Source: Candidatus Daviesbacteria bacterium (GTDB lineage: Bacteria > Patescibacteriota > Microgenomatia > Daviesbacterales > UBA10151). Taken from it: a stretch of DNA of 61,531 nt. Position numbers and translations under genes: made by a program. The stretch spans positions 1-61,531 of the forward strand of contig JACQIX010000019.1 of NCBI GenBank assembly GCA_016198275.1, in the 5' to 3' direction. A model generated the notes under the pieces. It made no database searches, was not told the DNA's origin, and worked only from the letters and a program-made list of their open reading frames with translations. Shown one piece after another: positions 14,980 to 57,309 of the stretch. The stretch's first letter is position 1. Each line of letters starts with the position of its first letter.

Positions 14980-16548
14980 TTAGAAGCGAAAATCGATCTC
15001 TATTTTTCCATTACCCGTACGTATCTCTTTGATGATCATACGCAGAAAATGTTTTCTTTCTTCAAATTCTGCATTATCCCATAAGATATTGAAGTCTTCC
15101 AGGGATTTAGTGAATTTCTCCAGTTCCAGACGACGCTCGTTAATTTGTTGAAGCTTAATTTGATAATCATCGGCTACCACATGGTACTTGTTCTCTTCTT
15201 CCTCTAAGCGCTTTAAATTGCCTCCATAGACTTCTAACGAGTCGATCCCTGCTTCATAAGCTTCTTTGACCCGCTGTCTTCTTCTTTCAATGTCAGCTAG
15301 ATGTTTTGCAGCATATTTGTAGTCGTCTTCTAGGTTATCCGAGATAGCAATATTACGATCAAATATTAGTCTTTCTCTGGCGGTTGGATTATTAACCAGG
15401 TTTCGAATCTGGTTTAATACGAATTCTTCGAGTTTGGTGGCACTTATAACTCTTCTCTGACAGATACCGCTATATTTGTAACCCCCACAAAGGTACTCAT
15501 AGGTAGTTGTATTATTCCATCTAGGATTCTTTTTCTGCCTATTATGGTGACGAGTGAGATAAGTTACGCCAGATCCACAACGAATACATTTTGCGATTCC
15601 AGTTAACAAACCCCGACTCATCTTGGCCCTACCCTTTTGAGAATTACCTCTGACCTTTTTCTCTTTCTGAGCAAGAGCAAAAATAGCATCAGGAATAATT
15701 GGTTTATGCGTTCCAGGTTCGATAATACCTTTGTGTCCTCTTAACCTTCGTTGTTGATTCTTCTTGTATTCAGCGTGTCTCCAACCCCAAAGCACCTTGC
15801 CTGTATATGTTTGGTTTTGGAGCATATATTTAATCGCTTGTGCTCGCCAAAACTGACCTCGCGGGGGTTTTACTCCTTTTTCTGTCAGCGAGAACGCTAT
15901 GTTCAAAGCTCCTCTGCCCTGAATATATTCATCAAATATCCAGCGGACGATTTTTGCCTGCTCTTTATCTACTAGAACTTCCCTTTGTACTTTTCCTTTT
16001 TCATCTAGCCATCTGTGAATTTTGTAACCATATGGTACGTTGTTAGGGATCCTCCCCGATTTAGCCACAGCGACCTTACCCATCATCATTCTTCTGCGGA
16101 TTTTATTTCTTTCAATTTCAGACATCGTGTCACTATATCCTTCAACCATAATACCGAGGTCATCATCGGTGGGATCGTAGAGTTTTGGATCTTTTGGCTC
16201 TACGGGGGTATTAGTTGAGTAGGTCTGTATAAATAATTCCTTCAAAGCTTCCCTTGAGAGGGTGGCGCGTGCACGGTTTCTTGCAAAACGGTCAAAGTCA
16301 TAAACTAGCACCAAATCAAATATATGTTGCTCAGCGTCATCTAATAACTGTTGGAACGCTCTTCTTTCTTCAATGAGATGGCCACTTTCAGCATCAATGT
16401 AAGGTTCATGAACCAATTCCCAACCATGTTCTACGATGGTCTTTTTGCATTTGGCTATTTGATCAGGAAGAGAATATTTCCCTTCTGCTTGCTCTTTTGT
16501 GCTGACTCGGGCATATATTACCGCCCGGATATGAAATTTATTTTCCAT
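14980..16548 (-). CDS. Large serine recombinase (integrase)
   Basis: 522 aa. It has the resolvase catalytic domain AVIYARVSTKEQ (Ser nucleophile), a recombinase domain, a Cys-rich zinc ribbon (CIRCGSG...CGGYKYSGIC) and a long C-terminal coiled coil (EDDYKYAAKHLADIERRRQRVKEAYEAG...). Confidence 0.9.
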   Translation of the reverse strand: MENKFHIRAVIYARVSTKEQAEGKYSLPDQIAKCKKTIVEHGWELVHEPYIDAESGHLIEERRAFQQLLDDAEQHIFDLVLVYDFDRFARNRARATLSREALKELFIQTYSTNTPVEPKDPKLYDPTDDDLGIMVEGYSDTMSEIERNKIRRRMMMGKVAVAKSGRIPNNVPYGYKIHRWLDEKGKVQREVLVDKEQAKIVRWIFDEYIQGRGALNIAFSLTEKGVKPPRGQFWRAQAIKYMLQNQTYTGKVLWGWRHAEYKKNQQRRLRGHKGIIEPGTHKPIIPDAIFALAQKEKKVRGNSQKGRAKMSRGLLTGIAKCIRCGSGVTYLTRHHNRQKKNPRWNNTTTYEYLCGGYKYSGICQRRVISATKLEEFVLNQIRNLVNNPTARERLIFDRNIAISDNLEDDYKYAAKHLADIERRRQRVKEAYEAGIDSLEVYGGNLKRLEEEENKYHVVADDYQIKLQQINERRLELEKFTKSLEDFNILWDNAEFEERKHFLRMIIKEIRTGNGKIEIDFRF

Positions 16549-40461: not shown

Positions 40462-40467
40462 AAAACA

Positions 40468-40983
40468 ATGCAGGAACCAAAAATCAGAACAATCTTACTT
40501 GTAAGTATTTTTGCGATCGCTTTTGCGTTTGTTGAGGCTTCAGTGGTTGTGTATCTACGACATCTATTGGGTGCCAGTTTTAACCCGCCGCAAGTCAGCC
40601 GGGAGCAAGTCTTATTATTAGTCCCAGGAATAGCTTTTCTTGACCCAAAAACAACTCTGGCCGTAATGAAGGATTCACAGATTTTGAAGGTTGAGCAATT
40701 TCGGGAGGCAGCGACCATAATTATGCTTGCCAGTGTTGCATTTTTAGCTGCCAAGGAAGCTCGCGAGAAATTAGCTTACTTTCTTCTCGCGTTTGGTGTT
40801 TGGGATATCTTTTATTACGTCTTTTTGCGGCTGGTTATTGGTTGGCCGAAGTCTCTTTTTGATTCAGATATTTTTTTTCTGTTACCAGTTCCATGGGTAG
40901 GACCGGTGATTACACCTTTAATTATCTCAAGCGTTTTAATCTTTGCAGCTTTATTGCTTTTAAAAAGAAAAGTTGAATTATGA
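40468..40983 (+). CDS. Polytopic membrane protein of unknown function, first gene of the ATPase operon
   Basis: 171 aa from the ATG at 40468. The track start at 40444 lies inside the predicted operator. It has about 5 TM helices and an ATGA overlap with the ATPase gene. Confidence 0.4.
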   Translation: MQEPKIRTILLVSIFAIAFAFVEASVVVYLRHLLGASFNPPQVSREQVLLLVPGIAFLDPKTTLAVMKDSQILKVEQFREAATIIMLASVAFLAAKEAREKLAYFLLAFGVWDIFYYVFLRLVIGWPKSLFDSDIFFLLPVPWVGPVITPLIISSVLIFAALLLLKRKVEL

Positions 40984-43226: not shown

Positions 43227-43648
43227 ACAGTGCAATAGCAAAAGGAACTCTGGCTTCACTGGTACTCCTTATAGTGTATTTCACCGTTGTCTCTTTGGTT
43301 TCCGGTTGGAGTTTTGCTCAGGATCAGTTTCGTCAATTCTGGTACTTCGTTGTTACTTTGGCAATAGGATTTGGTGTTCAGATAGGGCTGTATAGTTATC
43401 TTAAAAGTTCAATCAAAGGCGCGGTTAGTCCGAGAATTGTAACCACTACCGGAGCCACTTCCACTGCAGCGATGATTTCCTGCTGCGCCCATTACCTTGT
43501 GAACTTATTGCCCATCCTAGGCGCTGTTGGAATCATCACCGTTATCTCTCAGTACCAAGTGCAATTATTTTGGGTAGGTCTAGCGTTTAACTTTGCAGGA
43601 ATCGCTTATATGGCAAATAAAGTCTATAAATTCTCAAAACATATATGA
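43223..43648 (+). CDS. Small 4-TM membrane protein with an intramembrane Cys pair (SCCAHY)
   Basis: 141 aa with an ATGA overlap with the ATPase gene. MISCCAHYLVNLLPILG...SQYQVQLFWV is the same pattern as in 26484 and 27743. Confidence 0.45.
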   Translation: MNSAIAKGTLASLVLLIVYFTVVSLVSGWSFAQDQFRQFWYFVVTLAIGFGVQIGLYSYLKSSIKGAVSPRIVTTTGATSTAAMISCCAHYLVNLLPILGAVGIITVISQYQVQLFWVGLAFNFAGIAYMANKVYKFSKHI

Positions 43649-44106
43649 AAAACCAAAAGGTCATCATAATTGGTCTGGCAATTGTTATTATCGGAGCCGC
43701 TTTTTATTATGTGATCTTCAACCGTACAAACTCGTCAAGCACACAACCAGTTGGACCTGAACAATCAGAACAAAGTACTCTTTCAACCCAAACACTAACG
43801 GATGGAACTGTAACTTATAAAGTAACACCCAAAAATTTGACTTCTAGTGTCTCTACTTGGGATTTTGATATCAGCCTGGATACACATACCGGAAGCTTAG
43901 ATCAGGATCTAGTAGAAATCGTTCATCTGGTTGACGACAAAGGCAATGAATATAAAGCCACAACATGGGAGGGTGCCCCAGCTGGAGGTCATCATCGCGA
44001 AGGTATTCTTAGGTTCTCTCCAGTTACTCCACGCCCTGATTTCTTTGAATTGAAAATACAAACTACAAGTAGCACAGAAAATAATAGTTTGCGCTGGAAT
44101 ATATGA
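43645..44106 (+). CDS. Membrane-anchored extracytoplasmic protein of unknown function
   Basis: 153 aa with an ATGA overlap. A TM anchor is followed by a beta-rich-looking domain with a GGHHREG patch. Confidence 0.4.
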   Translation: MKNQKVIIIGLAIVIIGAAFYYVIFNRTNSSSTQPVGPEQSEQSTLSTQTLTDGTVTYKVTPKNLTSSVSTWDFDISLDTHTGSLDQDLVEIVHLVDDKGNEYKATTWEGAPAGGHHREGILRFSPVTPRPDFFELKIQTTSSTENNSLRWNI

Positions 44107-44588
44107 ACAAAACATTACGACATTATGAAGAAAGCGTGCTTATTCCCGCCTCTCCCCATGATTTGTTTAATTATGTAGATGACCATAAGAACTTTTCTTC
44201 CCATATGAGTAAGGCATCGCCGATGTTGGGTGGAGGAAAAATGGAAGTATCAGTTGACGAAGGAGATGGTCGGAAGGTTGGTTCACACATCCGGTTAAAG
44301 GGAACTGCCTTTGGAATCAAATTGTCTTTGGATGAAGTGGTCACACGTTATGAACCGCCATTATTAAAAACTTGGGAAACGGTTGGAATTCCAAAACTTT
44401 TGGTAATCGGTCAGTACCGCATGGGGGTTGAGATAAAACCGCAAAATACTAATTCCCTCCTTCGAGTTTTTATTGATTACGACTTACCAACTACAAATAC
44501 CTGGTTAGGACAGTTGTTTAGTGGTTTTTATGCAAAATGGTGCGTCCGGCAAATGCTTAAAGGGGCAAGTGTTCATTTTACTAAATAG
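44103..44588 (+). CDS. SRPBCC (START/polyketide-cyclase-like) superfamily protein
   Basis: 161 aa with an ATGA overlap. The N-terminus (ESVLIPASPHDLFNYVDDHKNFSSHM) and the length fit the SRPBCC fold. The call is tentative. Confidence 0.45.
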   Translation: MNKTLRHYEESVLIPASPHDLFNYVDDHKNFSSHMSKASPMLGGGKMEVSVDEGDGRKVGSHIRLKGTAFGIKLSLDEVVTRYEPPLLKTWETVGIPKLLVIGQYRMGVEIKPQNTNSLLRVFIDYDLPTTNTWLGQLFSGFYAKWCVRQMLKGASVHFTK

Positions 44589-44603
44589 AAAGAGGTGATT
44601 TAT

Positions 44604-44801
44604 ATGGGAATTGCAGATATTTTCAAAAAAGCGGCCAAGAAATTGGATGAAGGCAAAGATCCAATTTGTGGCATGAAGGTAGACTTGGAAACTACCAAAT
44701 TCAAAAGTACTTATCAGGGCAAAGTATATGGATTTTGTTCAGAGGAATGTAAAAAGACTTTTAACAAAAATCCATTTCAGTACGCAGATGCAAACTGCTA
44801 A
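44604..44801 (+). CDS. YHS (TRASH-type) metal-binding domain protein
   Basis: 65 aa from the ATG at 44604, with AGAGGTGA upstream. DPICGMKVDLETTKFKSTYQGKVYGFCSEECKKTFNKNP is a typical YHS domain. Confidence 0.7.
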   Translation: MGIADIFKKAAKKLDEGKDPICGMKVDLETTKFKSTYQGKVYGFCSEECKKTFNKNPFQYADANC

Positions 44802-44828
44802 TAATTTATTGAGAGGAGGTGAGAAGTT

Positions 44829-45050
44829 ATGAAACCATCAAAATTAATGCATATCGCTAGTATTATTGTCGGGTTTGTTGGCATTATTTCATTCGCAAGT
44901 GCTATTTTGGGTGGATCGGATAATCTCGTATTCGGGATTACGAAGACGGACGCACTACTGTGCTCTGCCATTCTTATTCTTATCGCCATCTGGACTCAGA
45001 TAGCGACAATCCATCACATAATGCTTGAGAAGAAGGGAGAAATTGTTTAA
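44829..45050 (+). CDS. Small two-TM membrane protein
   Basis: 73 aa. GGAGGTGA lies 6 nt upstream of the ATG. Hydrophobic, no motif. Confidence 0.4.
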   Translation: MKPSKLMHIASIIVGFVGIISFASAILGGSDNLVFGITKTDALLCSAILILIAIWTQIATIHHIMLEKKGEIV

Positions 45051-45096
45051 TCAATAATTCTATTATGGAAGTATTAATGAATGGAGGTGAGAAATT

Positions 45097-45363
45097 ATGA
45101 AACATGAACCAAATGCTACTGCCAATGCAGCTGCAGTTACCGTTGCAGCGCTCTATGTTGTTTGCCGAATAGCTATCGCGCTATTTCCTGATTTAGCAAT
45201 GTCTGTTGCCCAGTCGTGGTTCCATGGCTTGGAGCTTAGTAAAGTTTCCGGATGGAATCTATCGATGGGCCCATTCATTTTGGGGCTTATGACATCTGCC
45301 GGAGGAGCGTGGTTAGTAGGTTACGTTTTTGCGACTGCTTATAACTATTTTGCCAAGAAATAA
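45097..45363 (+). CDS. Small two-TM membrane protein
   Basis: 88 aa. GGAGGTGA lies 6 nt upstream of the ATG. Hydrophobic, no motif. Confidence 0.4.
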   Translation: MKHEPNATANAAAVTVAALYVVCRIAIALFPDLAMSVAQSWFHGLELSKVSGWNLSMGPFILGLMTSAGGAWLVGYVFATAYNYFAKK

Positions 45364-45376
45364 CTTGTGGACTTGT

Positions 45377-45637
45377 TTAAACGTTAGTAAGATCGTTCAT
45401 CGAGACACCAAGAGCTTTAGCAATCTTCCACATAACATAAACTGTTGGGTGGTATTTCCCAAGCTCCAAATGACCCACATAAGTGAGATGCAGTCCAGCT
45501 TTTTCTGCCAGTTCTTGCTGGGTTAGTTTCTTGTTTTTTCTCGCCTCCTTCAGTCTTTCACTTAATCTTTTTGTGAACTCCCTTCTGAGTCTAGAATTTT
45601 CTGCCTCCGTTGAGGGAGTTTGAAATGATAATCCCAT
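45377..45637 (-). CDS. XRE-family helix-turn-helix transcriptional regulator
   Basis: 86 aa containing LTQQELAEKAGLHLTYVGHLELGKYHPTVYVMWKIAKALGVSMNDL. Confidence 0.8.
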   Translation of the reverse strand: MGLSFQTPSTEAENSRLRREFTKRLSERLKEARKNKKLTQQELAEKAGLHLTYVGHLELGKYHPTVYVMWKIAKALGVSMNDLTNV

Positions 45638-45654
45638 CTATCATATTGTCTAGA

Positions 45655-45702
45655 GTACTCATAGGATTTTATATAGCGTACTCATCTAACTTTTGATATA
45701 AT
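45655..45702 (+). promoter_or_regulatory. Divergent control region: two GTACTCAT repeats and an extended -10
   Basis: GTACTCAT occurs at 45655-45662 and 45678-45685, 23 bp apart. TGaTATAAT lies at 45694-45702, upstream of the GTG at 45739. Confidence 0.4.
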
Positions 45703-45738
45703 CCTTGATAAATAAGGCAAAGATTGGAGGTGATAAAA

Positions 45739-46266
45739 GTGAAGAAATGTAAATCTTGTAAGGCTGAGATACCATCAGACGCTAAAAAGTGTTCACATTG
45801 TGGAACCGACCAAAGGGGTTGGCTCAGACGGCACCCGATACTTACTGGCCTTTTGGTATTATTCGTAATAGGTTTTATCGGAATAGCCGCCAGCGGAGGC
45901 GAAAGTACAAGCACAAGTCAGCCTACCGCCCAGACAACAGGTGCTGAGACCAGATCAGCAGAGCCGATGAAGATAACCGCCAAGGAGCTTGCGGATGCTT
46001 TTGATGAAAACCAAGTAAGTGCTGAAAAAACATGGGGCGGGAAGTATGTTGAGTTTTCCGCTATCGTGTCAAACATCACGGACTCCGGACTTTCATTCAG
46101 CAGTGTTGCCTCGAAAGAGTTTTCTTTGGCACAGATCAGCTGTCGAGTGAAGGACAAAAACCAACTGCTTTCATTGAAAAACGGCCAGAGTGTTACTGTG
46201 AGGGGTATTGTGGGGAGTCAAACCATTGGAGTGATTGATGTTGATGACTGTGAAGTGGTCAAATAA
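45739..46266 (+). CDS. Zinc-ribbon - TM - OB-fold (tRNA_anti-like) protein
   Basis: 175 aa from the GTG at 45739, with GGAGGTGA 5 nt upstream. CKSCKAEIPSDAKKCSHCG is followed by a TM helix and then AKELADAFDENQVSAEKTWGGKYVEFSAIV...VTVRGIV, typical of tRNA_anti-like OB domains. Confidence 0.5.
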   Translation: MKKCKSCKAEIPSDAKKCSHCGTDQRGWLRRHPILTGLLVLFVIGFIGIAASGGESTSTSQPTAQTTGAETRSAEPMKITAKELADAFDENQVSAEKTWGGKYVEFSAIVSNITDSGLSFSSVASKEFSLAQISCRVKDKNQLLSLKNGQSVTVRGIVGSQTIGVIDVDDCEVVK

Positions 46267-46369: not shown

Positions 46370-49300
46370 ATGGGCATTTTTTATGGAAGAAATATGGAAG
46401 ACAGAATAGAACCTCTAGAGGCGGAACAAGCTAGGCAAGCGACAGATGCTATTAAAGGATATATTTATCAAATTTGGCAAAGTTTATATAAATGGATTCA
46501 TTTAGCAGATGAAGAAATTTTATATTTGGAAGGTGCCGAAGACTTCGATGTTTTATCGCCTGATAAATCTGTAACCACTCAAGTCAAGGATTTATCTAAA
46601 ACATTAACTCTGCGTTCGCCCGAGATAACCGAAGCAATCTCCAATTTTTGGAAATTAAGACAAAGAGAGAAACGAAATGTGATTTTTCAGTTTCTTACGA
46701 CTGCCGAAAAAGGGCAGGAGCAAGGGAATCCATTTAATGGATTTACAGGGTTAAATTATTGGGAGCAATGTAAAAATGGCGGCAATACATCTCACATAAA
46801 GAAATTTTTACTTCGATTGAAGGGTTTGCCGCCGGAATTGACTAAATTTATAAAGACGAGTTCTAACGCAGAATTTCTTAAGGAGCTAATAATTCCGATT
46901 GAATGGAACACAGGCGAGGGGAATCTTGAGGAGGTAAGAAAACAAGTTGAAAACGACCTAATCGTTTATGGTGAAAAGCATAAATATTCGGCCTCCGATT
47001 CAAAAAGAGCTGCTGCAATTTTGTACGATAAAGTATGTACAATTCTGTGTATAAAGGATCTCCGACAGCGCTGTCTCACCAAGGCTAGCTTTATCGAAGC
47101 TTTTGAAGATGCCTTAAGTGAAAAAGTTTCAAAGAGCGAATTGATTCTTTTGCGTAAAACCCAAAGTCAGTTTACAGAGATAATTCAAGATCTTAGTAAT
47201 TTTCTGGGCATGGGAGCGTCTGGCAAGACAGTAAATTTTCAGGTAACAAATCCATATATTGTTAATAAAAATTTGTTTATAACAAGGGGTAAACTGGTTG
47301 CACAAGTTCATCAAAAACTATCAAAGACCGACTTTCTACTCATAAGAGGTTCAACTGGTATGGGAAAGTCTTTGTTGTCGTTGGATGCTGTAGATCATGA
47401 TCGAGATAATTGGCGCTGGATTAGCTTCAGAAAACTGAGTGGGATCCAAATAAATGAGGTTTTACATGGATTATATGATGTTGTTTCGGGAGATATCCTT
47501 AACTATATTCTGGATGATATAAATTTCGATAGCGATTATTCCTTATATGAACAGAGTTTTGAGCGATTTGTTAATCTACTGAGAAATAGTGATAAAAAAA
47601 TTATTGTTACCTCCCAAAAGAAAATACCATCTCGTCTAGGATTAAAGCTTGGCCTGTCGAATGTAAATGAAATAATCGTTAACAACTTTGATACTGATGA
47701 AGTAACAAGCTTGTTAAGGTTAAACTCCTGTCCCGGGACAGATTTAAACTTATGGGTCAAGGATATTCAAATTACCACCAGATCGCATCCTCAGTTAGCC
47801 CATGCGCGAGCCAGAAGGTTATCACAAGAGCATTGGGATAAATCCAAAGCTATTTTGCGGACAGAGGAACTAACAGAGGTTAGGCGTGAAGTGGTTGGGA
47901 ATTTAATGTCGGAACTGCCATCCACCGAATCAAGAGATTTACTATTGCGACTGAGTATTTTAACTGGTTCATTTAAGCTAAAAAATGCGTTGATTCTTGC
48001 CAAATATCCAACGCTTATTAAAACTCCTGGAGTATTCTTTAACCAACTCATTGGACCTTATGTAGAACAGGTTGCTGAGGATAGTTATCGATTAAGCCCT
48101 CTTCTAGATAATGCCTTTCAAAGTAATTTTTCTCCAGATGAAATTAGAACGCTGCATGCAGTAGCGGGCGAATCTTATCTATCAAAAACTCTTAACCCGG
48201 ACGACTTCTCTAACATTCTCCTGCATGGAGTTACGAGTGAGTCTGGTAGATTACTTACTTTTGCTTTTTCGGCATTCTTATCAATCAAAGGACCTTACAA
48301 GAAGTTAATTTACCCCCATATTGATTGGATAACAATGGTCCACATAGGCACTGGCAGGTTGGCATTCCCGCAGGATGAGATTATGAATCTCATGTTTAGA
48401 TATATTCAATTCAGTGTAGCGGTAGAAACAAGTAACGCAAAGTTTGCACTGGCAGTAGCGGATGTTTGGTTTGAAGAGATCAATAAATTCACCGGTAAGG
48501 GACCACTTCAAAAGTTGGACAAACATATAAATTTGTTTCCTTTTATGTTTTATCTTTCAGTATTTCGTTATAACGATTTGGCTATTCCAATTAGTAAATG
48601 TGTGGAATGGTTAATCTCAGCCTTGGGTTTTATAGAAAAAAATCCTGAAATAAATACGATTTTTAAACCCCGCTGGAAGGAAGAGAATTTATCTTGGATA
48701 GAGTTAACGCTTGAGGTTGCTTTAACCAAAAGAATAAACAGTTCAAATATAGATGAATTTATGTCCGCAATCGCTAACCAAAAAAATGGAGACAGATTAC
48801 TAAAACTTATTGATGACCACGACACATTGCCCAAAAGGATAGTCGATAACGTCTGGTTGGATCAGATAGATTCAAAAACCCCAGATTGGCAAAAAGCCCT
48901 AGCGCAGCTTGAAAAAATAAGGGAATTCACATTAAGAAACAAAGCGGTTAACATTTCCGCTATTGCGGTCAGGTCAATTGCACTTATAAAGAACGAGTAT
49001 CTTCAAGACAAGAAAGGGGCTGTAAAAGCAATCGCTGATGGGATCAAAGCACTGGACAAACATCCAGAACTAATAAATTATGAGGCAAAAATTGCTTTTA
49101 TAGATCGGGATTATATTACTGCTCTGAAAATTTGGAATCGAGTACTACCGGATTTAGCAAAACATGGAGATTTGACAGCCGCTTTTGCCTATAGGGACGC
49201 AGCTGTTGCAGCAGCACAAACGAACGATTGGGTAACCGCCGCAAAGTACTTTAAATCGGCATCAAGTTACACCGGTAAACAAAACGAAAAGATATTCAGA

Positions 49301-50434
49301 ACACAATGTATAGCAGATTACGGTTTTGCCTTGTGGAAATTGAAGAAATATCCAGAATGCCTAGATACTTTTGCTGAGGTGATTGATTTATTCGATCAAT
49401 TACCAGATCCAAGACAAAATTTACGAGTCTTAGGTTTACTAAAAATGACCTCAAATGCTCTTATCTACTTTCAAAAAACCGTTAACCCGGAGTTTAGAAA
49501 TATTGGAATTCCATATACAGAGCCTTTTTCCGGCTCCTTTAGCCAACTGGAATTTAGTGAAAAACTTCGTGCGCTACCGATACCACCGCATATTTCTCTT
49601 TGGACATTTCTTGCTGAGATTGAGTATGAGCTGGGTATAGGAAACAAAATATACGATAAATTAATGAGCGTTTATTCACGATTGCCTGTTCTCTTTCAAG
49701 CAGAAGCTAAAAAATTGGCCGTTTTAAAATTGTTGAGGGTTGGTAATCTAACAGGTCTTCTTTCAGATCTGGTGGACTTTTTTACTCTTACAAACATATC
49801 CGTAGTTACCGAGAATAGGCATGAGTTAATTAAAAAACTTACAGACGAAGATTATGAACGAGCAATCGAGCGTCATGGTCCAGCCATTGTGAATGTTATT
49901 GCTTTTTCAACACTTAGCTTTATATCAGATAATCCTTATGAAAAGCTTCCTAACGAAGAATGGCAGCTGCAAGCAAAAAAACTGGGATTGGATGAATGTG
50001 TGGAATGGCCAGAATATATAAATGCTATTCCCAAAATGACTTCTACTGAAGCTCACAGAATTATAAAAGATAGATCCGCAAATGTTGCACTAAGAGTGTT
50101 GGCCTCAGTTTATATTCTGACTCATGATGATGACCGCGATTACTCACTTTACGCTAGCGCTTTACTTACAGCCTCTATTAAAGACTATACTTTATTCTCT
50201 GGTGAACTTGGGAAATACTTGTCAGCATTGGTTTCTAGGAGGTGGAAAGATATTGCGACAAATTTAAATAGAATTTGGCATGATGAAGAATCAAAGCGGG
50301 TTTTAGTTGCCTGTGCTGATAAGGAAAGTCGTGGTCTAAAAAAAGCAGCAAAGATAGCATTAGTTGCAAGTGACATTTCGTTCTTAAAGATAGATAATAT
50401 TAAAGGGAAGCTTAAAGAAATCGCTGACAATTGA
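46370..50434 (+). CDS. Single-gene STAND-like candidate antiphage protein: Cap4/DUF4297-type PD-(D/E)xK nuclease + P-loop NTPase + long helical TPR-like C-terminal region (Avs/bNACHT-like)
   Basis: 1354 aa (alternative ATG at 46394). The N-terminus has AIKGYIYQ...LYLEGAEDFDV...TQVKD, the GxxYQ / E-x-x-ED / QxK pattern of Cap4-type nucleases. Walker A is IRGSTGMGKSLLS (47348-47371) and Walker B is NYILDDINFD. About 800 residues of helical repeats follow, e.g. AAFAYRDAAVAAAQTNDWVTAAKYFKSAS. Confidence 0.65.
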   Translation: MGIFYGRNMEDRIEPLEAEQARQATDAIKGYIYQIWQSLYKWIHLADEEILYLEGAEDFDVLSPDKSVTTQVKDLSKTLTLRSPEITEAISNFWKLRQREKRNVIFQFLTTAEKGQEQGNPFNGFTGLNYWEQCKNGGNTSHIKKFLLRLKGLPPELTKFIKTSSNAEFLKELIIPIEWNTGEGNLEEVRKQVENDLIVYGEKHKYSASDSKRAAAILYDKVCTILCIKDLRQRCLTKASFIEAFEDALSEKVSKSELILLRKTQSQFTEIIQDLSNFLGMGASGKTVNFQVTNPYIVNKNLFITRGKLVAQVHQKLSKTDFLLIRGSTGMGKSLLSLDAVDHDRDNWRWISFRKLSGIQINEVLHGLYDVVSGDILNYILDDINFDSDYSLYEQSFERFVNLLRNSDKKIIVTSQKKIPSRLGLKLGLSNVNEIIVNNFDTDEVTSLLRLNSCPGTDLNLWVKDIQITTRSHPQLAHARARRLSQEHWDKSKAILRTEELTEVRREVVGNLMSELPSTESRDLLLRLSILTGSFKLKNALILAKYPTLIKTPGVFFNQLIGPYVEQVAEDSYRLSPLLDNAFQSNFSPDEIRTLHAVAGESYLSKTLNPDDFSNILLHGVTSESGRLLTFAFSAFLSIKGPYKKLIYPHIDWITMVHIGTGRLAFPQDEIMNLMFRYIQFSVAVETSNAKFALAVADVWFEEINKFTGKGPLQKLDKHINLFPFMFYLSVFRYNDLAIPISKCVEWLISALGFIEKNPEINTIFKPRWKEENLSWIELTLEVALTKRINSSNIDEFMSAIANQKNGDRLLKLIDDHDTLPKRIVDNVWLDQIDSKTPDWQKALAQLEKIREFTLRNKAVNISAIAVRSIALIKNEYLQDKKGAVKAIADGIKALDKHPELINYEAKIAFIDRDYITALKIWNRVLPDLAKHGDLTAAFAYRDAAVAAAQTNDWVTAAKYFKSASSYTGKQNEKIFRTQCIADYGFALWKLKKYPECLDTFAEVIDLFDQLPDPRQNLRVLGLLKMTSNALIYFQKTVNPEFRNIGIPYTEPFSGSFSQLEFSEKLRALPIPPHISLWTFLAEIEYELGIGNKIYDKLMSVYSRLPVLFQAEAKKLAVLKLLRVGNLTGLLSDLVDFFTLTNISVVTENRHELIKKLTDEDYERAIERHGPAIVNVIAFSTLSFISDNPYEKLPNEEWQLQAKKLGLDECVEWPEYINAIPKMTSTEAHRIIKDRSANVALRVLASVYILTHDDDRDYSLYASALLTASIKDYTLFSGELGKYLSALVSRRWKDIATNLNRIWHDEESKRVLVACADKESRGLKKAAKIALVASDISFLKIDNIKGKLKEIADN

Positions 50435-50435
50435 G

Positions 50436-50460
50436 GCTATATGGTAACCTATTTGAACAG
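50436..50460. other. Putative attR
   Basis: The sequence is GCTATATGGTAACCTATTTGAACAG. It shares AACC (50446-50449) with attL, and CCTATTT mirrors AAATAGG at attL. It lies 12 bp after the stop of the STAND-like gene. Confidence 0.35.
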
Positions 50461-50518: not shown

Positions 50519-51958
50519 TTAATTTATGGTGTGTAAAATTAAAATCTTATCCCGATCTTTTTTCAGTATTTGGTAATTTTTTTCTAAAAGATTAAAGTTT
50601 TCTACTCTCCAATTATTTGTAATTAACAAAAACTCATCCTTACTATTTAAGAGAGCAATAAATTCTTCTTGTTTGATTGGTGCTTTATCTACTCTGTCTT
50701 TTTCAGAATAAAATAATGCAGCTGGCGCAAAGTCGCCATCTACCAAAAGTTGTTGAGGGTACTTGCCTGCCTCTTTTGAAAGAATTGCTTCATCCGAGAC
50801 AAAAGCTGGAATATCAATAAATTGATACCAAATCATTTTAACCTGGCTGAAATAAATTAAAGAACTAAACAGTAACACAATTGCATATAGATAATATCTT
50901 AACTTATGGAAATATTTTTCTAAAATTATATAAGTTAATCCAAAATAAGATAAAAATAAAATAGGGAAAAGTGGAATTAAATACCAAATTTGTACTTTGG
51001 GAGAAAAAATTGTTGGTAGAATAAAAGAAATAAAAAATACCATTAAGATAAAAAATCTTTTTTGTCTGAAAATAGTTGATAATATCAATGATAAGATTGA
51101 AGGCCAAAACCATCGTCCAATGCCATAATATAGATAATCTTTGGTAAGCTTAAAATTGGCCAAATAAGTAGATTGTAAGTTTACTTCTTTAAGTCCTATA
51201 CTGAAATAATGTTGGATATAACCAGGATTCTGAATTATTTGAATAATAAACCAACCTAAACCAGTTATTGAAAATATTAAAATTGGTATCATTAAATCTT
51301 TCCACAGAAAGGTATTTTTTTTGTAAAAAATTATGATTAAAGTGGGAATAATTGCTAAAGGTACCATTGTCTTTGTCAAGAGAAGTAAAGCTAAACTTAT
51401 TGCTAAAAACAGAAGATATTTTTTCTTTTCAGATGCCATAAGTCCTAAAAGTATGCTTAGAAGAAAAAACATGGTTAAAATGATGTCAAGATTGCCTGTA
51501 CGGGATCTGAAAATAAACCAAGTTGCAGATGTCAAAGAGATGGCCGATGATAGACCAACTAAGGGATTAAACAGCTTTTTACCCAGTAAGTATAGTAAAG
51601 CAATACTGATAATGCCAGCTAGAGCTGATGGAAATCTAGTCCAAAATTCATTTATCCCAAATATCTTATATGTTAAAGCCATTAGCCAATAACCCGCTGG
51701 AGGATGATCGAAATAGGGATGTCCATTCCAAGTTAAGTTAATGTAATCTTCTGATTTGACAATGTTTCTGGCAACCGTAGCATACCATGCTTCATCCCAA
51801 CTGATCAGCGATGTCTGTCCTAATTTATAGAAAAATAGGGGAAGAAATAGTGGGACTATTATAAAAAATAAAAAAAAGCTCTTCATCAAAGTTAGTATAT
51901 CATCATATAATGGAACTATGGTTAAATCACTTCTTTTAATTTTGATTGCCTTTAACAT
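50519..51958 (-). CDS. GT-C glycosyltransferase, ArnT/PMT (family 39/83)-like
   Basis: 479 aa and polytopic. SWDEAWYATVARNIVKSEDY...YFDHPPAGYWLMALTYKIFGINEFWTRFPSALAG is the typical first-loop region of ArnT/PMT_2 enzymes. The start may be the Met at 51886. Confidence 0.75.
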   Translation of the reverse strand: MLKAIKIKRSDLTIVPLYDDILTLMKSFFLFFIIVPLFLPLFFYKLGQTSLISWDEAWYATVARNIVKSEDYINLTWNGHPYFDHPPAGYWLMALTYKIFGINEFWTRFPSALAGIISIALLYLLGKKLFNPLVGLSSAISLTSATWFIFRSRTGNLDIILTMFFLLSILLGLMASEKKKYLLFLAISLALLLLTKTMVPLAIIPTLIIIFYKKNTFLWKDLMIPILIFSITGLGWFIIQIIQNPGYIQHYFSIGLKEVNLQSTYLANFKLTKDYLYYGIGRWFWPSILSLILSTIFRQKRFFILMVFFISFILPTIFSPKVQIWYLIPLFPILFLSYFGLTYIILEKYFHKLRYYLYAIVLLFSSLIYFSQVKMIWYQFIDIPAFVSDEAILSKEAGKYPQQLLVDGDFAPAALFYSEKDRVDKAPIKQEEFIALLNSKDEFLLITNNWRVENFNLLEKNYQILKKDRDKILILHTIN

Positions 51959-53435
51959 AATTTTAAACGCTTATTGGTTGTTACTAGGTGATATTCATTA
52001 CGATATAGATGTTTCAAGGGATTTTTTAGTTATTGACGATATCATCAGAAATAATCATCTAACATTATTAGGTCCCAGATCAGGAGCAATACCTGGGGTT
52101 TTCCATGGTCCGTTATGGTTTTACGTTAACCTGCCAGCTTTTTTATTTGGCGGGGGAAATCCATTAATAGTTGGTTGGTTTTGGTTTTTATTATCAGCCA
52201 TTTTTTTATTAGTGGTATTTTGGGTGGCAAAAAAATTATTTGGTTTTGAAATAGGATTGCTTTCTGCTCTTCTTCTTTCTGTTAACTCCATAGTAAATCC
52301 CACAATTGGCTTGAAAAACTTTTATAACCCATATGGGGCAGTATTCTTATCGCCTATATTTTTCTTTTCTTTTTATAAATACATTATTACTTATAAGTTT
52401 AAATATCTAATTTACAGTCTTTTTATATTGGGACTGATTATTCAATTCCAGATGGCTTTTGGGGTGCCGATATTTTTTGCCATAACTCCATTGATTATTT
52501 ACCTATTATATAAAAAGAAAAGAATATGGCATTTATTGTCTTACTTTATTCTACTGATTCCCCTGTCTTCTTTTATCATATTCGATCTTAAGCACAACGG
52601 ATTACAGTTTAAAGCTTTGATTCGTTACCTAAATGAAACAAGTGAAGTTATCAATCTTTTGGATATTTTTAAACTTAGGATAAATGAGTTTACTTTTAAT
52701 TTTTTCGATTTTCTCTCTCCTGGAAAAAATATTCTGACTGCTTTTTATGCAATCAATTTTTTAATATTATTTCCATATAGTTTAAGAAAAAGCAACAGAC
52801 AGCAGAAAACAGCGTACTTCATATTTGGCTATTTATTTTTAGGATTTTGGGTCATAACTTTATTTTTTCCTGGGGGAGTGGGCAATTATTTCTGGCCGCT
52901 TTTACCTTTAACAATCATTATATTTTGTTCATTTTACAATTTTATAAAGAAGGAAATCTTTATACTATTTTTCCTGATACTTTATTTGGTAAATTTTTAT
53001 GAGGGAATTTTGGCAATTTTAGAATTTAAGACAGATGTTAATCAAAGAGGTCCTCATAGTTGGGCATTTAATTTGCAAGTTGCTAAAAAAATATATGATG
53101 ATGCCAAAGATGATTTTGGATATTTTAATTTTTCACCAGACAGATTTGCCTATCAACAAAGGTATGCCATGATTTATACAAAAAAGTTTTTTCCAAATAT
53201 TTATTCTTTTTCCTCAATCAAAAAACCTCTTACGTATTTAGTTGAGGTAGACCCGCCTAAAGACAGATCATATCTAAATGGTACTAACTGGAGAATTGCT
53301 GATGTGAAGATTGATAGAGAACCGGATCAGGTGTTTAGATTGGATTTTATTAAAATAGAAAAATATTGGCTAAGTGATGATGAAATCAAAAAACCATCAA
53401 ACCCTTATTTGCAAGACTCGCTGTTTCTTCAATAA
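51918..53435 (+). CDS. Polytopic membrane protein, probable GT-C-fold glycosyltransferase paralogue
   Basis: 505 aa. The N-terminal loop DIDVSRDFLVIDDI...LLGPRSGAIPGVFHGPLWFY parallels the 55831 and 59675 proteins. Confidence 0.45.
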   Translation: MVKSLLLILIAFNIILNAYWLLLGDIHYDIDVSRDFLVIDDIIRNNHLTLLGPRSGAIPGVFHGPLWFYVNLPAFLFGGGNPLIVGWFWFLLSAIFLLVVFWVAKKLFGFEIGLLSALLLSVNSIVNPTIGLKNFYNPYGAVFLSPIFFFSFYKYIITYKFKYLIYSLFILGLIIQFQMAFGVPIFFAITPLIIYLLYKKKRIWHLLSYFILLIPLSSFIIFDLKHNGLQFKALIRYLNETSEVINLLDIFKLRINEFTFNFFDFLSPGKNILTAFYAINFLILFPYSLRKSNRQQKTAYFIFGYLFLGFWVITLFFPGGVGNYFWPLLPLTIIIFCSFYNFIKKEIFILFFLILYLVNFYEGILAILEFKTDVNQRGPHSWAFNLQVAKKIYDDAKDDFGYFNFSPDRFAYQQRYAMIYTKKFFPNIYSFSSIKKPLTYLVEVDPPKDRSYLNGTNWRIADVKIDREPDQVFRLDFIKIEKYWLSDDEIKKPSNPYLQDSLFLQ

Positions 53436-55790
53436 TATAATAATTATTATTACCAGAGAAACAGCACTGATTATTGCTCCGTATTTTAAAGATTTCGGAG
53501 CATATTTGAATTCAACAGTGTGGTTGCCTTTTGGTAAAAAAATACCTCTAAAATTATAATTTGTTCTATGGATAGCAGTTTCCTTGCCGTCAATCATTGC
53601 TTTCCATCCAGGATAGAAGGAATCAAGGACTACCAGAAAAGCGTCAATATTTGAAGTGGTTTTGATTTGAACATGAGAATTAGTTAAAGGAGTATAGATT
53701 AAGTTAGCTTCTAGATCTTGGGGAGAGGTATTGTCAAATTTAAAGTCTTGGGTGATTGAGGTTGTTTCAATAGGGAAATCCTTATCTATTAAAAGTTTTA
53801 AAGTTTCTAATTCCGATGCTTTAATTACTCTTTTTGTTAAATACGCTCTTGGCAGGCTTTGGCTGTTTTCCAAAATTGCTATTCCTTTGTCTTCAAAAAC
53901 CTCTTTGTATTTTGGCGGGATAGTAACAGACACTTGCCCGCTACTGCTAACCCTGCCTTGATCACCTATTTTTAGAGCCACCAGAAAACGGGTATTAGTC
54001 ATGTCTAATATTTTGGAATTAAAATTTCCCACAAGGCCCCATCTAGGTTTAGGAGCCGTTTCAATGTTAGAAGAATCCACCACAGCCAATAATTTAGCTA
54101 TGTTTAAAGGATAAATCCCGTCATATCCTTGTATGGAAGAAATTTTAAAAGTAATCCACATATTGGCAGGAAAAACATCTCTTTCGGCAATCACTCTATC
54201 GTTAGGAAATTTTTCCAAAAACTTTGAAATAGGGGTTTGAGGATAAATGAAATCAGCACTGGAAAAGGTATTGAACTTAAGCCCAAAACGAAATAATTCG
54301 ACAGTCAGAATAAAGATAAAAATTAACTGGCCAATCAAAATAAAAAACCCAGACTTATTTAAAAACTTATTTAGGATTAAAATAACAAAAAAAACAGTTA
54401 CTATAATTAAAAGAGGCAAAAAAAGATTTCTTAAACTAATGTTAATATTTTTTAATAGAACATCAATATCACTTATTGAAACTTGTAATAAACTGATGGT
54501 ATTGATTAAAAGATATTTGCATATTAACAGGCCAATCAATACTCCTAAAATGATTGATAAAATTGCTAAAGCAGGTTTTAAACTTAATTTGTAATTTTTA
54601 CTCACTTGAGATACTCCATATGCTCCCAAAATAGATAAGGATAAATTTATTAAAAAATTTGCCCGGTTCATGGTAATTGATTGACCACCCCAAAGACCCA
54701 ACTTATATAAAAAGATACTTAAGGGGTTTGAGATAGAAAAAATTAGAGTTACAATTAATAAGCAAAGAGCAAATTTTATTTCGGTTTTACCGAAAAATTT
54801 CTTTAATCCTAATAAAGAAAATATCAATGTTGTTACTCCTGCATAGATGGTTGTGTCCATATTATCTCCCCTGCCCCAAAAATTACCGGTTGCCGGATTA
54901 CCAAAAAAATCAGGTGCCGCTAGATTGATAAGATTTTCAGGTGCAAAAAAAGGCACATTTTCATCTATAGTTTCAACTATTCTTTGAGAAACTTGAATAA
55001 GCTCGGCAACAGGGAGTAAAAAGACAGCGCTTAGGGAAATACCTAATATAATAAAAAAAAGGATGGTTACATCTGATAGGTATTTTTTAGATCTGAATAG
55101 AAACCAAAGTGCCATCCCCAAAAAAGTAAAAGGAATAACAGGCAGGTAGCCTGCCAATATTTGTAAGAAAATAAAGATACTAAGAATTGCACCCCACTTA
55201 ATCTTTCTTGTAATTAGATATTTATCTTCCAATAAAATTAAGATGGGAAAAAAAAGACTGGTGGTGGCCTGGGTATTCCATTGGATCCATAAAATCGTAG
55301 AACCGCCAAACCCGTAAGCAACCGCACCAAACACTGAAGGAAATTTGCCTAAATTTAAATGCCTTAAAAGCAAATACATAAAGAATGCAGCCAGAATAGG
55401 TTGTGACATGACCTGAAGAGTCCAGGCAATATGTGAAGATAAAAAGAGATAGAAAATCATTGTCGGAAAAAGTACCCCGACTTGAACGTTTGCAAATAAT
55501 GGATATCCGCCAAACATATAAGGATTCCATAAAGGCAGTTCTCCTTTTTTAGCAAAATCCGCTACCAATGATTTGAAAGGATAATAGAGCGATACTGCAT
55601 CAGAAAGTTTGGAGTTTTGGACAGGTACACCAACCGTATAATTTCCCCATTTATAGTTTAGCCAAGGATAATAGGCTCCTACAATTAAATCAGTAGGCAA
55701 AGGAATCAACCCTAAAAAAATTTTATAAAAAAATATTAAGGTAATTAATGTAAAAAAAACTAAAGCCAAAATTGCTTCTTTTAAACTCAT
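53397..55790 (-). CDS. YfhO-family membrane protein (GT-C-type glycosyltransferase)
   Basis: About 797 aa from the ATG at 55790. The track start at 55847 would overlap the divergent gene. YYPWLNYKWG...SDAVSLYYPFKSLVADFAKKGELPLWNPYMFGGYPLFANVQ is typical of YfhO. Confidence 0.7.
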   Translation of the reverse strand: MSLKEAILALVFFTLITLIFFYKIFLGLIPLPTDLIVGAYYPWLNYKWGNYTVGVPVQNSKLSDAVSLYYPFKSLVADFAKKGELPLWNPYMFGGYPLFANVQVGVLFPTMIFYLFLSSHIAWTLQVMSQPILAAFFMYLLLRHLNLGKFPSVFGAVAYGFGGSTILWIQWNTQATTSLFFPILILLEDKYLITRKIKWGAILSIFIFLQILAGYLPVIPFTFLGMALWFLFRSKKYLSDVTILFFIILGISLSAVFLLPVAELIQVSQRIVETIDENVPFFAPENLINLAAPDFFGNPATGNFWGRGDNMDTTIYAGVTTLIFSLLGLKKFFGKTEIKFALCLLIVTLIFSISNPLSIFLYKLGLWGGQSITMNRANFLINLSLSILGAYGVSQVSKNYKLSLKPALAILSIILGVLIGLLICKYLLINTISLLQVSISDIDVLLKNINISLRNLFLPLLIIVTVFFVILILNKFLNKSGFFILIGQLIFIFILTVELFRFGLKFNTFSSADFIYPQTPISKFLEKFPNDRVIAERDVFPANMWITFKISSIQGYDGIYPLNIAKLLAVVDSSNIETAPKPRWGLVGNFNSKILDMTNTRFLVALKIGDQGRVSSSGQVSVTIPPKYKEVFEDKGIAILENSQSLPRAYLTKRVIKASELETLKLLIDKDFPIETTSITQDFKFDNTSPQDLEANLIYTPLTNSHVQIKTTSNIDAFLVVLDSFYPGWKAMIDGKETAIHRTNYNFRGIFLPKGNHTVEFKYAPKSLKYGAIISAVSLVIIIIILLKKQRVLQIRV

Positions 55791-55830
55791 ATTATGAGTA
55801 TACTTATACTTAATAAAAAAATATACAGTA

Positions 55831-57309
55831 ATGAAGAAAACATACATTATTTTGTTGCTGATACTACTTTTAGGTTTATTTTTTAGGATTTATAAATTAG
55901 AAATTTTTTATTCCTGGGGTCATGACCAAGATCTTTTTGCCTGGATTGCAAAAGATATTTTAGTTGATTATCATCCCAGACTTATTGGCCAAGAAACTAG
56001 TATTACAGGAGTATTTATAGGCCCTTTGTTCTATTATCTGATTGCTTTAAGCTTTGCTGTTTTTAAAATGAATCCTTTAAGCGCTGCCATTGTAACAACC
56101 ACTATTAGCCTTTTTACAATTTTAAGTATTTATTGGGTTTTTAACAAATTTTTTGGACTAAGTGCTGGGCTTATTGGATCTTTTTTATATGCTGTCTCGC
56201 CAGGGGTAGTTTTCGGAGATCGTTGGGTAGTGCCGACTCAACCAACACCTCTTTGGACAATATGGTATTTTTACGTTCTTTTTTCAATCTTGAATGGGAA
56301 TCTAAAAGTTTTGATACCTTTAAGTATTTTAGTTGGTTTAATCTGGCATGTTCATATTGCTTTTATACCCCTATTGATATTGCTGCCGGTAGCCTTTTTG
56401 TTGTCAGAAAAAAGAGATAAGTTAAGATTTAGTTTAAAAAGTATTACAATTTCGTTGTTAATATTTTTTGTGCTCATCTCACCTTTTTTTGCTTTTGAAT
56501 TCAGACATAATTTCCAGCAGACCAAAAGTTTAATCGGGGCAACCTATCAAGATAGAGGAGATTTAACCGGACTTGAGAGATTAATTAAGGTGCTAAGTTC
56601 TGGCGGAAGAGCTTTAGTCGGTACATTTGTTTTAAGTAATACTGCCATTGAATTGGAACAATCTTTTACAGTAACTATGCCATTCATACTAATATTGATA
56701 ACACTCTATTTACGGTTTACTCGAATCTTAAACAAAAACCAGGTAAAACTTCTTTTAGTTTGGTATCTAATCGTTTTTTTGGGCCAGTTTTTATCAAAAA
56801 GAATAATAACAGAATACTATTTTAGTAATCTTATTGTCATATTTATTTTAATATTATCTCTTTTTTTAAATAGAATTAATATTTTTTTGAGAAAATTTCC
56901 ACTTTCAATTATTGTTTTATCAATTTATTTAATAGTAGTTACAGTTTGGTTTATTAACAAACCTGATGATCTGGGAGGGTATTTATATAAAAGACAGGCA
57001 ATAGAATATATTAAAAATGATGTAAGCAGCAAAGGGTATCGTTGTATTGCCATAAATCATATTGAAAACCAAAAAGGAGGTGCGACTGGTTTTAGATATT
57101 TATTCTGGCTTAATAAATTATTAGTAGTCACATCAGGCAATGACGTACCTGTCTACAGTATAGTAAATCCTTGGTTGATTTCTGAAAAAGAAATTAAAGC
57201 CAAATTCGGTAATATTGGAGTTATCATTCCAGCGGGGAATAAGATCGATCCGGAAATTTGTTATCAACAATATCGCCAATTACTGCCTTTATGGGGATTT
57301 AATAATTAA
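55831..57309 (+). CDS. Polytopic membrane protein, probable GT-C-fold glycosyltransferase (paralogue of 59675..61180)
   Basis: 492 aa. Long blocks are shared with the 59675 protein, e.g. RWVVPTQPTPLWTIWYFYV / RWVVPTVTTSLWSIWYFYT, GLIWHVHIAF / GLIWHIHIAL and GFRYLFWL / GFRYLFYL. Confidence 0.5.
   Translation: MKKTYIILLLILLLGLFFRIYKLEIFYSWGHDQDLFAWIAKDILVDYHPRLIGQETSITGVFIGPLFYYLIALSFAVFKMNPLSAAIVTTTISLFTILSIYWVFNKFFGLSAGLIGSFLYAVSPGVVFGDRWVVPTQPTPLWTIWYFYVLFSILNGNLKVLIPLSILVGLIWHVHIAFIPLLILLPVAFLLSEKRDKLRFSLKSITISLLIFFVLISPFFAFEFRHNFQQTKSLIGATYQDRGDLTGLERLIKVLSSGGRALVGTFVLSNTAIELEQSFTVTMPFILILITLYLRFTRILNKNQVKLLLVWYLIVFLGQFLSKRIITEYYFSNLIVIFILILSLFLNRINIFLRKFPLSIIVLSIYLIVVTVWFINKPDDLGGYLYKRQAIEYIKNDVSSKGYRCIAINHIENQKGGATGFRYLFWLNKLLVVTSGNDVPVYSIVNPWLISEKEIKAKFGNIGVIIPAGNKIDPEICYQQYRQLLPLWGFNN

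Follow-up and report, generated by a model that had tools for sequence, protein, structure and literature searches.

We analyzed a 61,531-nucleotide stretch of DNA (the window), positions 1-61,531 of contig JACQIX010000019.1 of a Candidatus Daviesbacteria bacterium. On its forward strand lies an uninterrupted open reading frame (ORF), 46370-50434, which encodes 1354 amino acids when read from the ATG at 46370 and combines, in one polypeptide, an N-terminal nuclease domain, a central NTPase of the signal transduction ATPases with numerous domains (STAND) class and a long helical C-terminal region (Table 1). A first-pass annotation, made from the sequence alone, had reported this ORF as a candidate antiviral STAND (Avs) gene. 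The ORF was found exactly as described, with only its start codon in need of correction, and the motifs that had been quoted lie where they had been placed: GYIYQ at residues 30-34, EGAEDFDV at 54-61, QVK at 71-73, GSTGMGKS at 327-334 and YILDDI at 379-384. Residue numbers count from ATG 46370 throughout, and conservation counts refer to an alignment of 36 full-length relatives that are 17-57% identical to the window protein. Motifs that are invariant or nearly so over these 36 relatives are therefore regarded as selected features and not as chance strings.

The N-terminal nuclease domain

The N-terminal domain of the window protein matched the PADLOC DUF4297 model (PDLC02187) with an E value of 1.2e-8 and the NCBIfam model DUF4297_antiphage (NF042945, 'DUF4297 family anti-phage-associated protein') with an E value of 5e-9 over model positions 1-70. 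The score against the latter, 35.6 bits, stays below the cut-off of 300, as the match is confined to the first 70 of the 400 positions in this full-length model. Across the family, 30 of the 36 relatives matched the PADLOC DUF4297 model and 25 matched LmuA, with a best E value of 3e-16. A phmmer search of the PDB sequences with the full protein returned nothing meaningful, and family profiles were required: a profile of the nuclease domain only, built from 40 sequences, gave exactly three matches, 8xav (2.7e-9), 9c1m (8.6e-7) and 8ziq (1.1e-5). All three are DUF4297 subunits of DUF4297-HerA systems, and the alignment spans the G-Y-x-Y-Q, E-x-x-E-D-x-D and Q-x-K motifs. Residues E54, E57, D58, D60 and Q71 are invariant, while position 73 is a lysine in 32/36 relatives and an arginine in 4/36. 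DUF4297 has been shown by experiment to be a PD-(D/E)xK double-stranded DNA (dsDNA) nuclease, which is activated by dimerization and superimposes on the Cap4 domain of Avs3 (PMC11291478).

An AlphaFold2 (AF2) model of residues 1-660, built on the family alignment, had a mean predicted local distance difference test (pLDDT) value of 85.8. The nuclease region of this model shows a helix, four strands and a helix before the last strand (residues 28-110, pLDDT ~90), and the Foldseek matches of the model in its N-terminal domain included 9c1m_G (E value 4.1e-8), HamA (8zue, 2.8e-6) and LmuA (9nxx, 1.7e-5). The predicted nuclease domain, as judged by model and Foldseek together, has the restriction-endonuclease-like alpha/beta fold.

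The STAND ATPase switch

Following the nuclease, the AF2 model places, in order, a Rossmann-like nucleotide-binding domain (NBD), a helical domain (HD; residues 442-515), a winged-helix domain (WHD) with a beta-hairpin wing at residues 565-575, and a helix carrying H596. The helical domain contains the GHPQL motif, which in the family reads T-x-(G/S)-H-P-Q-L-x-H-A (residues 470-479) with H473 and L476 invariant. The best PDB matches found by Foldseek were Apaf-1, CED-4, MalT, Avs4, ZAR1 and other resistosomes, with E values of 8e-9 to 2e-7 over 410-670 columns. At the level of sequence, Pfam nSTAND3 was matched by 21 of the 36 relatives at E ≤0.01 (best E value 5.7e-7), and the full-length family profile found Apaf-1 in the PDB at an E value of 8e-5. 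A profile of the NTPase only returned mostly generic P-loops, along with Apaf-1 (1.6e-3) and Avs4 (4.8e-3). For the predicted NBD-HD-WHD arrangement, the modeled structure appears to be more decisive evidence than the sequence. Judging from motif spacing, H596 is a candidate for the 'MHD'-type histidine of STAND proteins that would contact ADP, comparable to His545 of the Salmonella enterica Avs7 protein, SeAvs7 (PMC13581612). R306 may correspond to an arginine that many STANDs conserve ahead of the P-loop.

The putative C-terminal sensor

The model of the C-terminal region is confident (pLDDT 90.9, predicted template modeling score 0.84) and wholly helical, with 37 helices, and matches to tetratricopeptide repeats (TPR) from both Pfam and PDB profiles center on residues 880-1020. 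Foldseek searches with this model returned generic TPR solenoids only (Ctr9, IFIT1/5, Ski3 and OGT, with E values of ~1e-3 or weaker) and therefore give no clue to the trigger; no Avs sensor, including that of Avs4, was among the matches. Identity to distant relatives is 36% in the nuclease, 26-32% in the NTPase and 15-25% in the sensor. An effector, a STAND module and a repeat sensor are thus joined in a single polypeptide with the sensor least conserved, which is the architecture of Avs proteins in the broad sense. The first-pass annotation had proposed just such an effector-switch-sensor protein, and each of its three parts is now supported, having withstood the refuting conditions set in that annotation: the Cap4/DUF4297 PD-(D/E)xK nuclease by PADLOC and NCBIfam models, PDB profiles and the DUF4297, LmuA and HamA structures, the STAND-type NTPase by both Walker motifs, the modeled fold and the nSTAND3 matches, and the TPR-like C terminus by the all-alpha solenoid model and the TPR matches.

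Table 1. Coordinates of the STAND gene, its domains and motifs, and other features of the window
Feature	Residues	Position	Strand	Basis or remark
Whole ORF, single-gene Avs-type STAND protein	1-1354	46370..50434	+	1354 aa; likelier start ATG 46394, giving 1346 aa
N-terminal effector: DUF4297/Cap4-type PD-(D/E)xK core (residues ~20-120), then helical subdomain	9-262	46394..47155	+	Profiles, AF2 model, Foldseek
Catalytic motif block E-G-A-E-D-F-D ... Q-V-K	54-73	46529..46588	+	36-sequence alignment; aligned to IECIEDVDV...QCK of solved DUF4297 8xav
Linker, poorly conserved; model confidence low at residues 273-289	263-294	47156..47251	+	Alignment, AF2 model
STAND nucleotide-binding domain, including invariant R306 upstream of the P-loop	295-440	47252..47689	+	Profiles, AF2 model, Foldseek
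Walker A, GSTGMGKS; G332 and K333 invariant	327-334	47348..47371	+	36-sequence alignment
Walker B, YILDDI; D382 invariant, D383 in 35/36	379-384	47504..47521	+	36-sequence alignment
Helical domain and winged-helix domain	441-640	47690..48289	+	AF2 model, Foldseek, alignment
H596 (H in 33/36), helix following WHD wing; candidate 'MHD'-type histidine	596	48155..48157	+	Alignment and AF2 model
Sensor, all-alpha TPR-like solenoid, least conserved region	641-1354	48290..50431	+	AF2 model, TPR matches, alignment
Hairpin aagccgg-(9 nt)-ccggctt, 3' of upstream gene's stop codon		46289..46313	+	Read directly from sequence
Zinc-ribbon + tRNA_anti-like (oligonucleotide/oligosaccharide-binding, OB) protein, upstream neighbor		45724..46266	+	Genomic context
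XRE/HTH_3 regulator		45377..45637	-	Homologues within ~2 kb of STAND gene in 4/5 closest elements
Large serine recombinase, left end of element, begins directly after secA stop		14980..16548	-	Sequence matches, synteny
Multicopper oxidase		30822-32408		Copper cargo
HMBD heavy-metal P-type ATPase		40980-43226		Copper cargo
YHS protein		44595-44801		Copper cargo

Start codon and transcription unit

The public gene call for an identical protein (P0001) begins eight codons downstream, at ATG 46394 (M9), alignments of homologues to the window protein begin only at residue ~9-22, and the sequence GGAAG lies 5 nt upstream of ATG 46394. Because of these three observations we favor ATG 46394 as the likely start, which would give a product of 1346 aa. 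The hairpin that follows the upstream gene is likely a terminator that separates the transcription unit of the zinc-ribbon gene from that of the STAND gene, and this hairpin, together with a spacer of ~100-125 bp, would fit a separate transcription unit for the latter. The gene had been described as a single large gene with its own promoter, and the first part of this description stands. The second was not supported by a promoter scan, in which sigma-70-like matches in the region were no commoner than in shuffled sequence.

The protein family and its distribution

The family numbers hundreds of proteins. A word-indexed search of 5.8 billion proteins identified 49 relatives, mostly full length (~1330-1440 aa) and 22-58% identical to the window protein. 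A search with the sensor only, against 1.84 billion cluster representatives, returned 539 clusters at E ≤1e-3, 266 of them at E ≤1e-10, and nearly all of the best 150 sensor matches were proteins of 1330-1450 aa whose sensor starts near residue 640. Among GTDB species genomes there were 92 relatives, many from Poribacteria and others from Acidobacteriota, Latescibacterota, Verrucomicrobiota and the Alpha-, Beta-, Gamma- and Deltaproteobacteria, a patchy, multi-phylum spread of the kind produced by horizontal transfer. Seventeen large plasmids encode relatives as well. The enterobacterial members, from Salmonella, Klebsiella, Enterobacter and Citrobacter (the Citrobacter koseri protein is HEJ0180756.1), have the same full architecture.

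Four proteins of ~1420-1450 aa (P0267, P0280, P0293 and P0333) keep the NTPase and the sensor and differ in their N-terminal module of ~370 aa. In the sensor-only search, which also looked for other systems sharing the sensor, the usual architecture was retained in nearly every match. The alternative module, carried by just these four proteins in that search, opens with a hydrophobic helix, has no Pfam match and may be a membrane-acting effector. Effector exchange of such a kind is typical of Avs families.

Host and mobile element in the window

The SecA protein encoded in the window (12235-14979) is 80-86% identical to that of Candidatus Daviesbacteria, so that the host is a bacterium of the candidate phyla radiation (CPR), as the first-pass annotation had supposed. 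A related Daviesbacteria contig (L095) is collinear with the window over window positions 5271-14879 and from 58253 to the window's end, and secA and glnA, which are spaced by 66 bp in that contig, are separated in the window by a 43.25-kb insertion (14980-58230). This insertion is made up of a ~35.5-kb serine-recombinase element, with a guanine-plus-cytosine (GC) content of ~0.40, and of PMT-type glycosyltransferase genes in a low-GC block of 7.7 kb. The recombinase is followed by an HTH_17-like gene and a gene for a DnaG-type primase. The terminal ~100 nt of secA (beyond 14879) did not align to L095, and integration may therefore have replaced the 3' end of that gene.

GC content drops from ~0.38-0.40 to ~0.31 right after the STAND gene, at ~50.5 kb, so that the high-GC part of the insert ends with this gene. 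On the right, the insertion as a whole ends at or before 58230, and synteny is compatible with an element reaching 58.2 kb. Of the earlier proposal that the gene sits at the edge of an element and next to its attR site, the edge is retained, on the strength of the GC drop and of the gene's position in related elements. The attR site stays a proposal, as no convincing att repeat was found: the left junction and two candidate right junctions share only 8-9-mers, which is the chance level, and between the left junction and the sequence that follows the gene there are only two shared 8-mers, as chance predicts. The 8-mer TATGGTAA occurs at 14962-14969, within the last secA codons, and again at 50440-50447, 6 nt past the STAND stop codon; a repeat of this length is expected by chance and is no evidence for an attachment-site core. 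The XRE regulator and the zinc-ribbon/OB gene that were said to precede the STAND gene were both found upstream of it (45377-46266), and the XRE gene is probably the element's own regulator.

Two other features of the region may be recorded here. The element carries copper/heavy-metal (copper-resistance) cargo at 28000-45400, unusual for a CPR genome, which includes DsbD and redoxin genes in addition to those listed in Table 1. Several paralogous large PMT/PMT_2-like (glycosyltransferase family 39-like) membrane proteins are encoded at 50519-57309 and 59675-61180, and the 492-aa protein at 55831-57309 is clearly related to the 501-aa protein at 59675-61180.

Genomic contexts of the relatives

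In all ten contexts that we inspected, which are a sample and not a statistical test of enrichment, the gene lies in an integrative element or a defense island, always alone and with changing neighbors; the suggestion that it occupies a location typical of defense cargo agrees with this. One neighborhood has a Type ISP/MmeI-like restriction-modification (R-M) system together with genes for a methyltransferase, an HNH protein and a resolvase, and another encodes a TIR protein along with an AAA_15/21 ATPase. In Klebsiella the gene lies in an AlpA-DUF5906-integrase island, in Enterobacter near an integrase, in Salmonella in an integrase/AlpA/CbtA island beside mutS (396 blocks in the collection's index), and in the marine bacterium SCSIO 12827 (L091) in an integrase island.

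The elements that harbor the five closest relatives (L003, L005, L008, L088 and L089; 44-56% identity) are smaller. L005, L088 and L089, the last from Logan SRR22387933, carry a large serine recombinase, a DUF5659 and/or an AAA_25 or Prim-Pol replication gene and an XRE gene within ~2 kb of the STAND gene, which is located at the end opposite the recombinase with ~9-12 kb between both. The XRE protein of L089 is 81% identical to that of the window, and its host also belongs to Daviesbacteria (YchF 70-78% identical), the element there being inserted beside ychF and not secA. These three look like a family of CPR integrative elements with the STAND gene as cargo. The closest GTDB relative, L008 (CAZBVY010000001.1; 53% identity), is labeled 'uncultured Pseudomonadales', has a GC content of 0.35 and contains homologues of the HTH_17-like and XRE genes of the window element; it may be a mis-binned contig.

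Proposed function and alternative explanations

It is highly likely, in our judgment, that the gene encodes a stand-alone Avs-type STAND pattern-recognition protein, carried as cargo of a serine-recombinase integrative element, that cleaves DNA upon sensing a phage protein. The identity of its domains, the conservation of their residues, the organization of the whole as a single gene and its mobile and defense context all argue for this, and from them we infer antiphage activity and sensing of a trigger. Autoinhibition, trigger binding, oligomerization, dsDNA cleavage and abortive infection would be expected by analogy with Avs3/Avs4, SeAvs7 and DUF4297-HerA. The protein would rest as an autoinhibited, ADP-bound monomer until, during infection, its TPR-like solenoid (residues 641-1354) binds a conserved phage protein, and this binding would open the NBD-HD-WHD module (residues 295-640). 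ATP bound at K333 and D382/D383 would then drive oligomerization, the oligomer would bring the DUF4297/Cap4-type domains (residues 9-262; E54, E57, D58, D60, Q71 and K73) together into an active dsDNA nuclease, and degradation of phage and host DNA would abort the infection.

Several observations weigh against this interpretation. Neither at full length (E ≤1) nor over residues 1-300 (E ≤0.1) did the window protein match the Pfam model PF14130 (Cap4_nuclease), which was matched by just two of the 36 relatives; the nuclease domain is therefore a divergent member of DUF4297/Cap4, assigned by E values, motifs and fold at scores that do not reach curated cut-offs. The window protein alone gave E values of 0.017-0.024 with nSTAND3, nSTAND1 and nSTAND6, under the Pfam cut-offs, and generic AAA+ and ABC P-loops scored like STANDs against the NTPase profile, which makes the NTPase only weakly STAND-specific at the level of sequence. 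The strand after Walker B ends in T414-S-Q416 (47609-47617), with the glutamine present in 27 of the 36 relatives. From motif spacing, Q416 appears to occupy the position of the usual sensor-I arginine of STANDs, and ATP hydrolysis may therefore differ from that of canonical STANDs. The AVAST/Avs models of PADLOC (2023) matched neither the window protein (E ≤1) nor the 36 relatives (E ≤0.01). We found no experimental work on the family in the searchable literature, whether on protection, toxicity, a trigger or nuclease activity, and the native function is not directly testable, CPR hosts and their phages being uncultured. Finally, no phage-encoded relative was present in 50,697 phage records.

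This last result would also suit the same machine aimed at another target, namely a protein that shields its element against competing plasmids, integrative elements and satellites by recognizing a conserved protein of theirs. The gene is integrative-element cargo in the window as well as among the closest relatives, and the 17 relatives on large plasmids point the same way. We nevertheless consider such a target unlikely, given that the triggers known for characterized Avs families are all phage proteins (PMC13581612), that antiphage cargo is common on mobile elements, and that several relatives adjoin classical antiphage genes (R-M and TIR systems).

It also seems rather improbable that the gene belongs to a multi-gene system, with the upstream XRE and zinc-ribbon/OB proteins acting as co-sensor, antitoxin-like brake or regulator. 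These two genes form a pair directly upstream of the STAND gene in the window, a pair of XRE-type and zinc-ribbon genes (HTH_31 and DUF2321/DZR, at 7022-7955 of L091) is found in the same place in the unrelated marine bacterium SCSIO 12827, and four of the five closest elements have an XRE homologue no more than ~2 kb away from the STAND gene. However, the zinc-ribbon gene, and with it the pair, is missing from the other eight contexts, so that the arrangement is perhaps a coincidence, and no neighbor is conserved family-wide among the ten contexts inspected. The XRE gene, which looks like part of the element backbone, varies in its placement: it precedes the STAND gene in the window, follows it on one strand or the other elsewhere and lies 7 kb off in L003. 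The terminator-like hairpin lies between the zinc-ribbon and STAND genes.

Many STAND clades are not related to defense and are interspersed with defense clades (PMC13581612), and the sequence matches of the NTPase are generic, so a non-immune STAND protein, for example a signaling or a DNA-repair/regulatory ATPase with a nuclease-like domain, has to be weighed. We regard it as very improbable: a DNA-binding output domain is absent, the effector is a defense-type nuclease with its catalytic residues intact, and the distribution is patchy and mobile-element-borne with a variable neighborhood. That the gene is a decaying or inactive copy is scarcely credible, even though CPR bacteria have streamlined genomes and several models score the window protein under their curated cut-offs, since the 4-kb ORF is unbroken, all family-invariant residues are present in the window protein, four contigs that were assembled independently encode the identical protein (P0001) and the relatives at 53-58% identity retain full length.

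Significance

With an antiphage STAND protein as the preferred explanation, full-size Avs-type immunity, in the form of a ~4-kb gene, is in circulation within Candidatus Daviesbacteria by way of integrative elements. The genome of this CPR lineage is very small, and no phage-host system from it is in culture. Since the whole architecture is shared by enterobacterial relatives, the family is directly testable in E. coli; a trigger obtained from enterobacterial work could guide the search for a matching protein in CPR phage metagenomes.

It is tempting to go further, although we do so tentatively and hold the following to be doubtful as a whole. The family may constitute an Avs lineage that is without prior experiments and has a sensor fold unlike any solved, within which a Daviesbacteria subclade (44-57% identity where measured) would travel on serine-recombinase elements from one ultra-small, episymbiotic CPR bacterium to another and would recognize a CPR-specific phage protein or a protein of a competing element. 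If so, it would provide a handle for identifying what infects uncultured CPR cells, and costly abortive-infection immunity would be maintained in a genome of ~1 Mb.

Comparison with known systems

SeAvs7 (Lee et al., Nature 2026, PMC13581612), a Cap4-STAND-TPR protein of 1523 aa, assembles into a tetramer once it has bound the major capsid protein. Like it, the window protein is encoded by a single gene and combines a Cap4-type PD-(D/E)xK nuclease, a STAND module with its Walker A lysine, Walker B aspartate and a candidate WHD histidine, and a large TPR-like sensor, and by analogy it would be expected to work through phage-protein binding, ATP-dependent tetramerization and dsDNA cleavage. The two differ in length, 1523 aa in SeAvs7 versus ~1346 here and 1330-1450 aa across the family, and the Avs7 sensor is common to Dsr1. 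For the window protein an EF-Tu co-factor cannot be assumed. PADLOC at E ≤1 matched the window protein only with DUF4297 and, weakly, with DndB, and no Dsr1 model was among the matches of the 36 relatives; PADLOC 2.0 contains a Dsr1 model. Membership of Avs7 is ruled out by length and by the lack of a Dsr1-type sensor match. The SeAvs7 structures (9N00, 9N01 and 9YIX) appeared in neither of our PDB searches, the database copies of which may not include them.

AVAST models are included in PADLOC-DB 2.0, and membership of Avs1-5 (AVAST types 1-5) is ruled out by the PADLOC models. Avs3, a sensor of the large terminase subunit, and Avs4, a sensor of the portal protein, share the nuclease-STAND-TPR architecture, although both are longer than the window protein. 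EcAvs4 (PDB 8dgf) is among the top structural matches of the N-terminal half (E value 5.8e-8), with a weak match to the NTPase profile (4.8e-3), whereas the search with the sensor model failed to return the sensor of Avs4.

Taken by domains, the closest solved relative of the nuclease by sequence is the DUF4297 subunit of DUF4297-HerA (8xav, 8ziq and 9c1m; PMC11291478), with the same motifs and an E value of 2.7e-9. In that system, however, the nuclease stands as a protein of its own and a HerA hexamer switches it on, whereas in the window protein it shares one chain with a STAND ATPase and a sensor, and no gene for a HerA/FtsK-type ATPase was found in any inspected neighborhood. LmuA, the Cap4-nuclease effector of Lamassu (PDB 9nxx), resembles the window protein in its nuclease domain only (PADLOC LmuA in 25 of 36 relatives, fold match at 1.7e-5), and neither an adjacent gene for the SMC-like LmuB nor an LmuC partner was found in the window or the relatives. 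Membership of DUF4297-HerA and of Lamassu is rejected, the partner genes being missing. Apaf-1, CED-4, plant NLR resistosomes and MalT are the best structural matches of the NBD-HD-WHD module and follow the same switch logic, but they have other effector and sensor domains and their kinship in sequence is remote (E value 8e-5 at best).

A 2026 survey cataloged 589 STAND clades, 198 of them defense-associated, 684 sensor clusters and at least 90 Avs families, with names that run as far as Avs24; BLAST hits of Cap4 effectors were among its seeds, and Enterobacteriaceae homologues were favored in its experiments (PMC13581612). Because the enterobacterial members of the present family have NCBI accessions, and because the survey was seeded by Cap4 effectors and favored Enterobacteriaceae, the family is very probably in that catalog, and it may be one of the named families. 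The accessions of the enterobacterial relatives were not found in the searchable literature, and a possible correspondence of the C. koseri member with CkAvs11, a portal sensor (PMC13581612), is only a lead. For CPR genomes, a computational survey of defense systems is already available (PMC12259885). For the field the family is one more on a long list and introduces no new principle; its design is well known.

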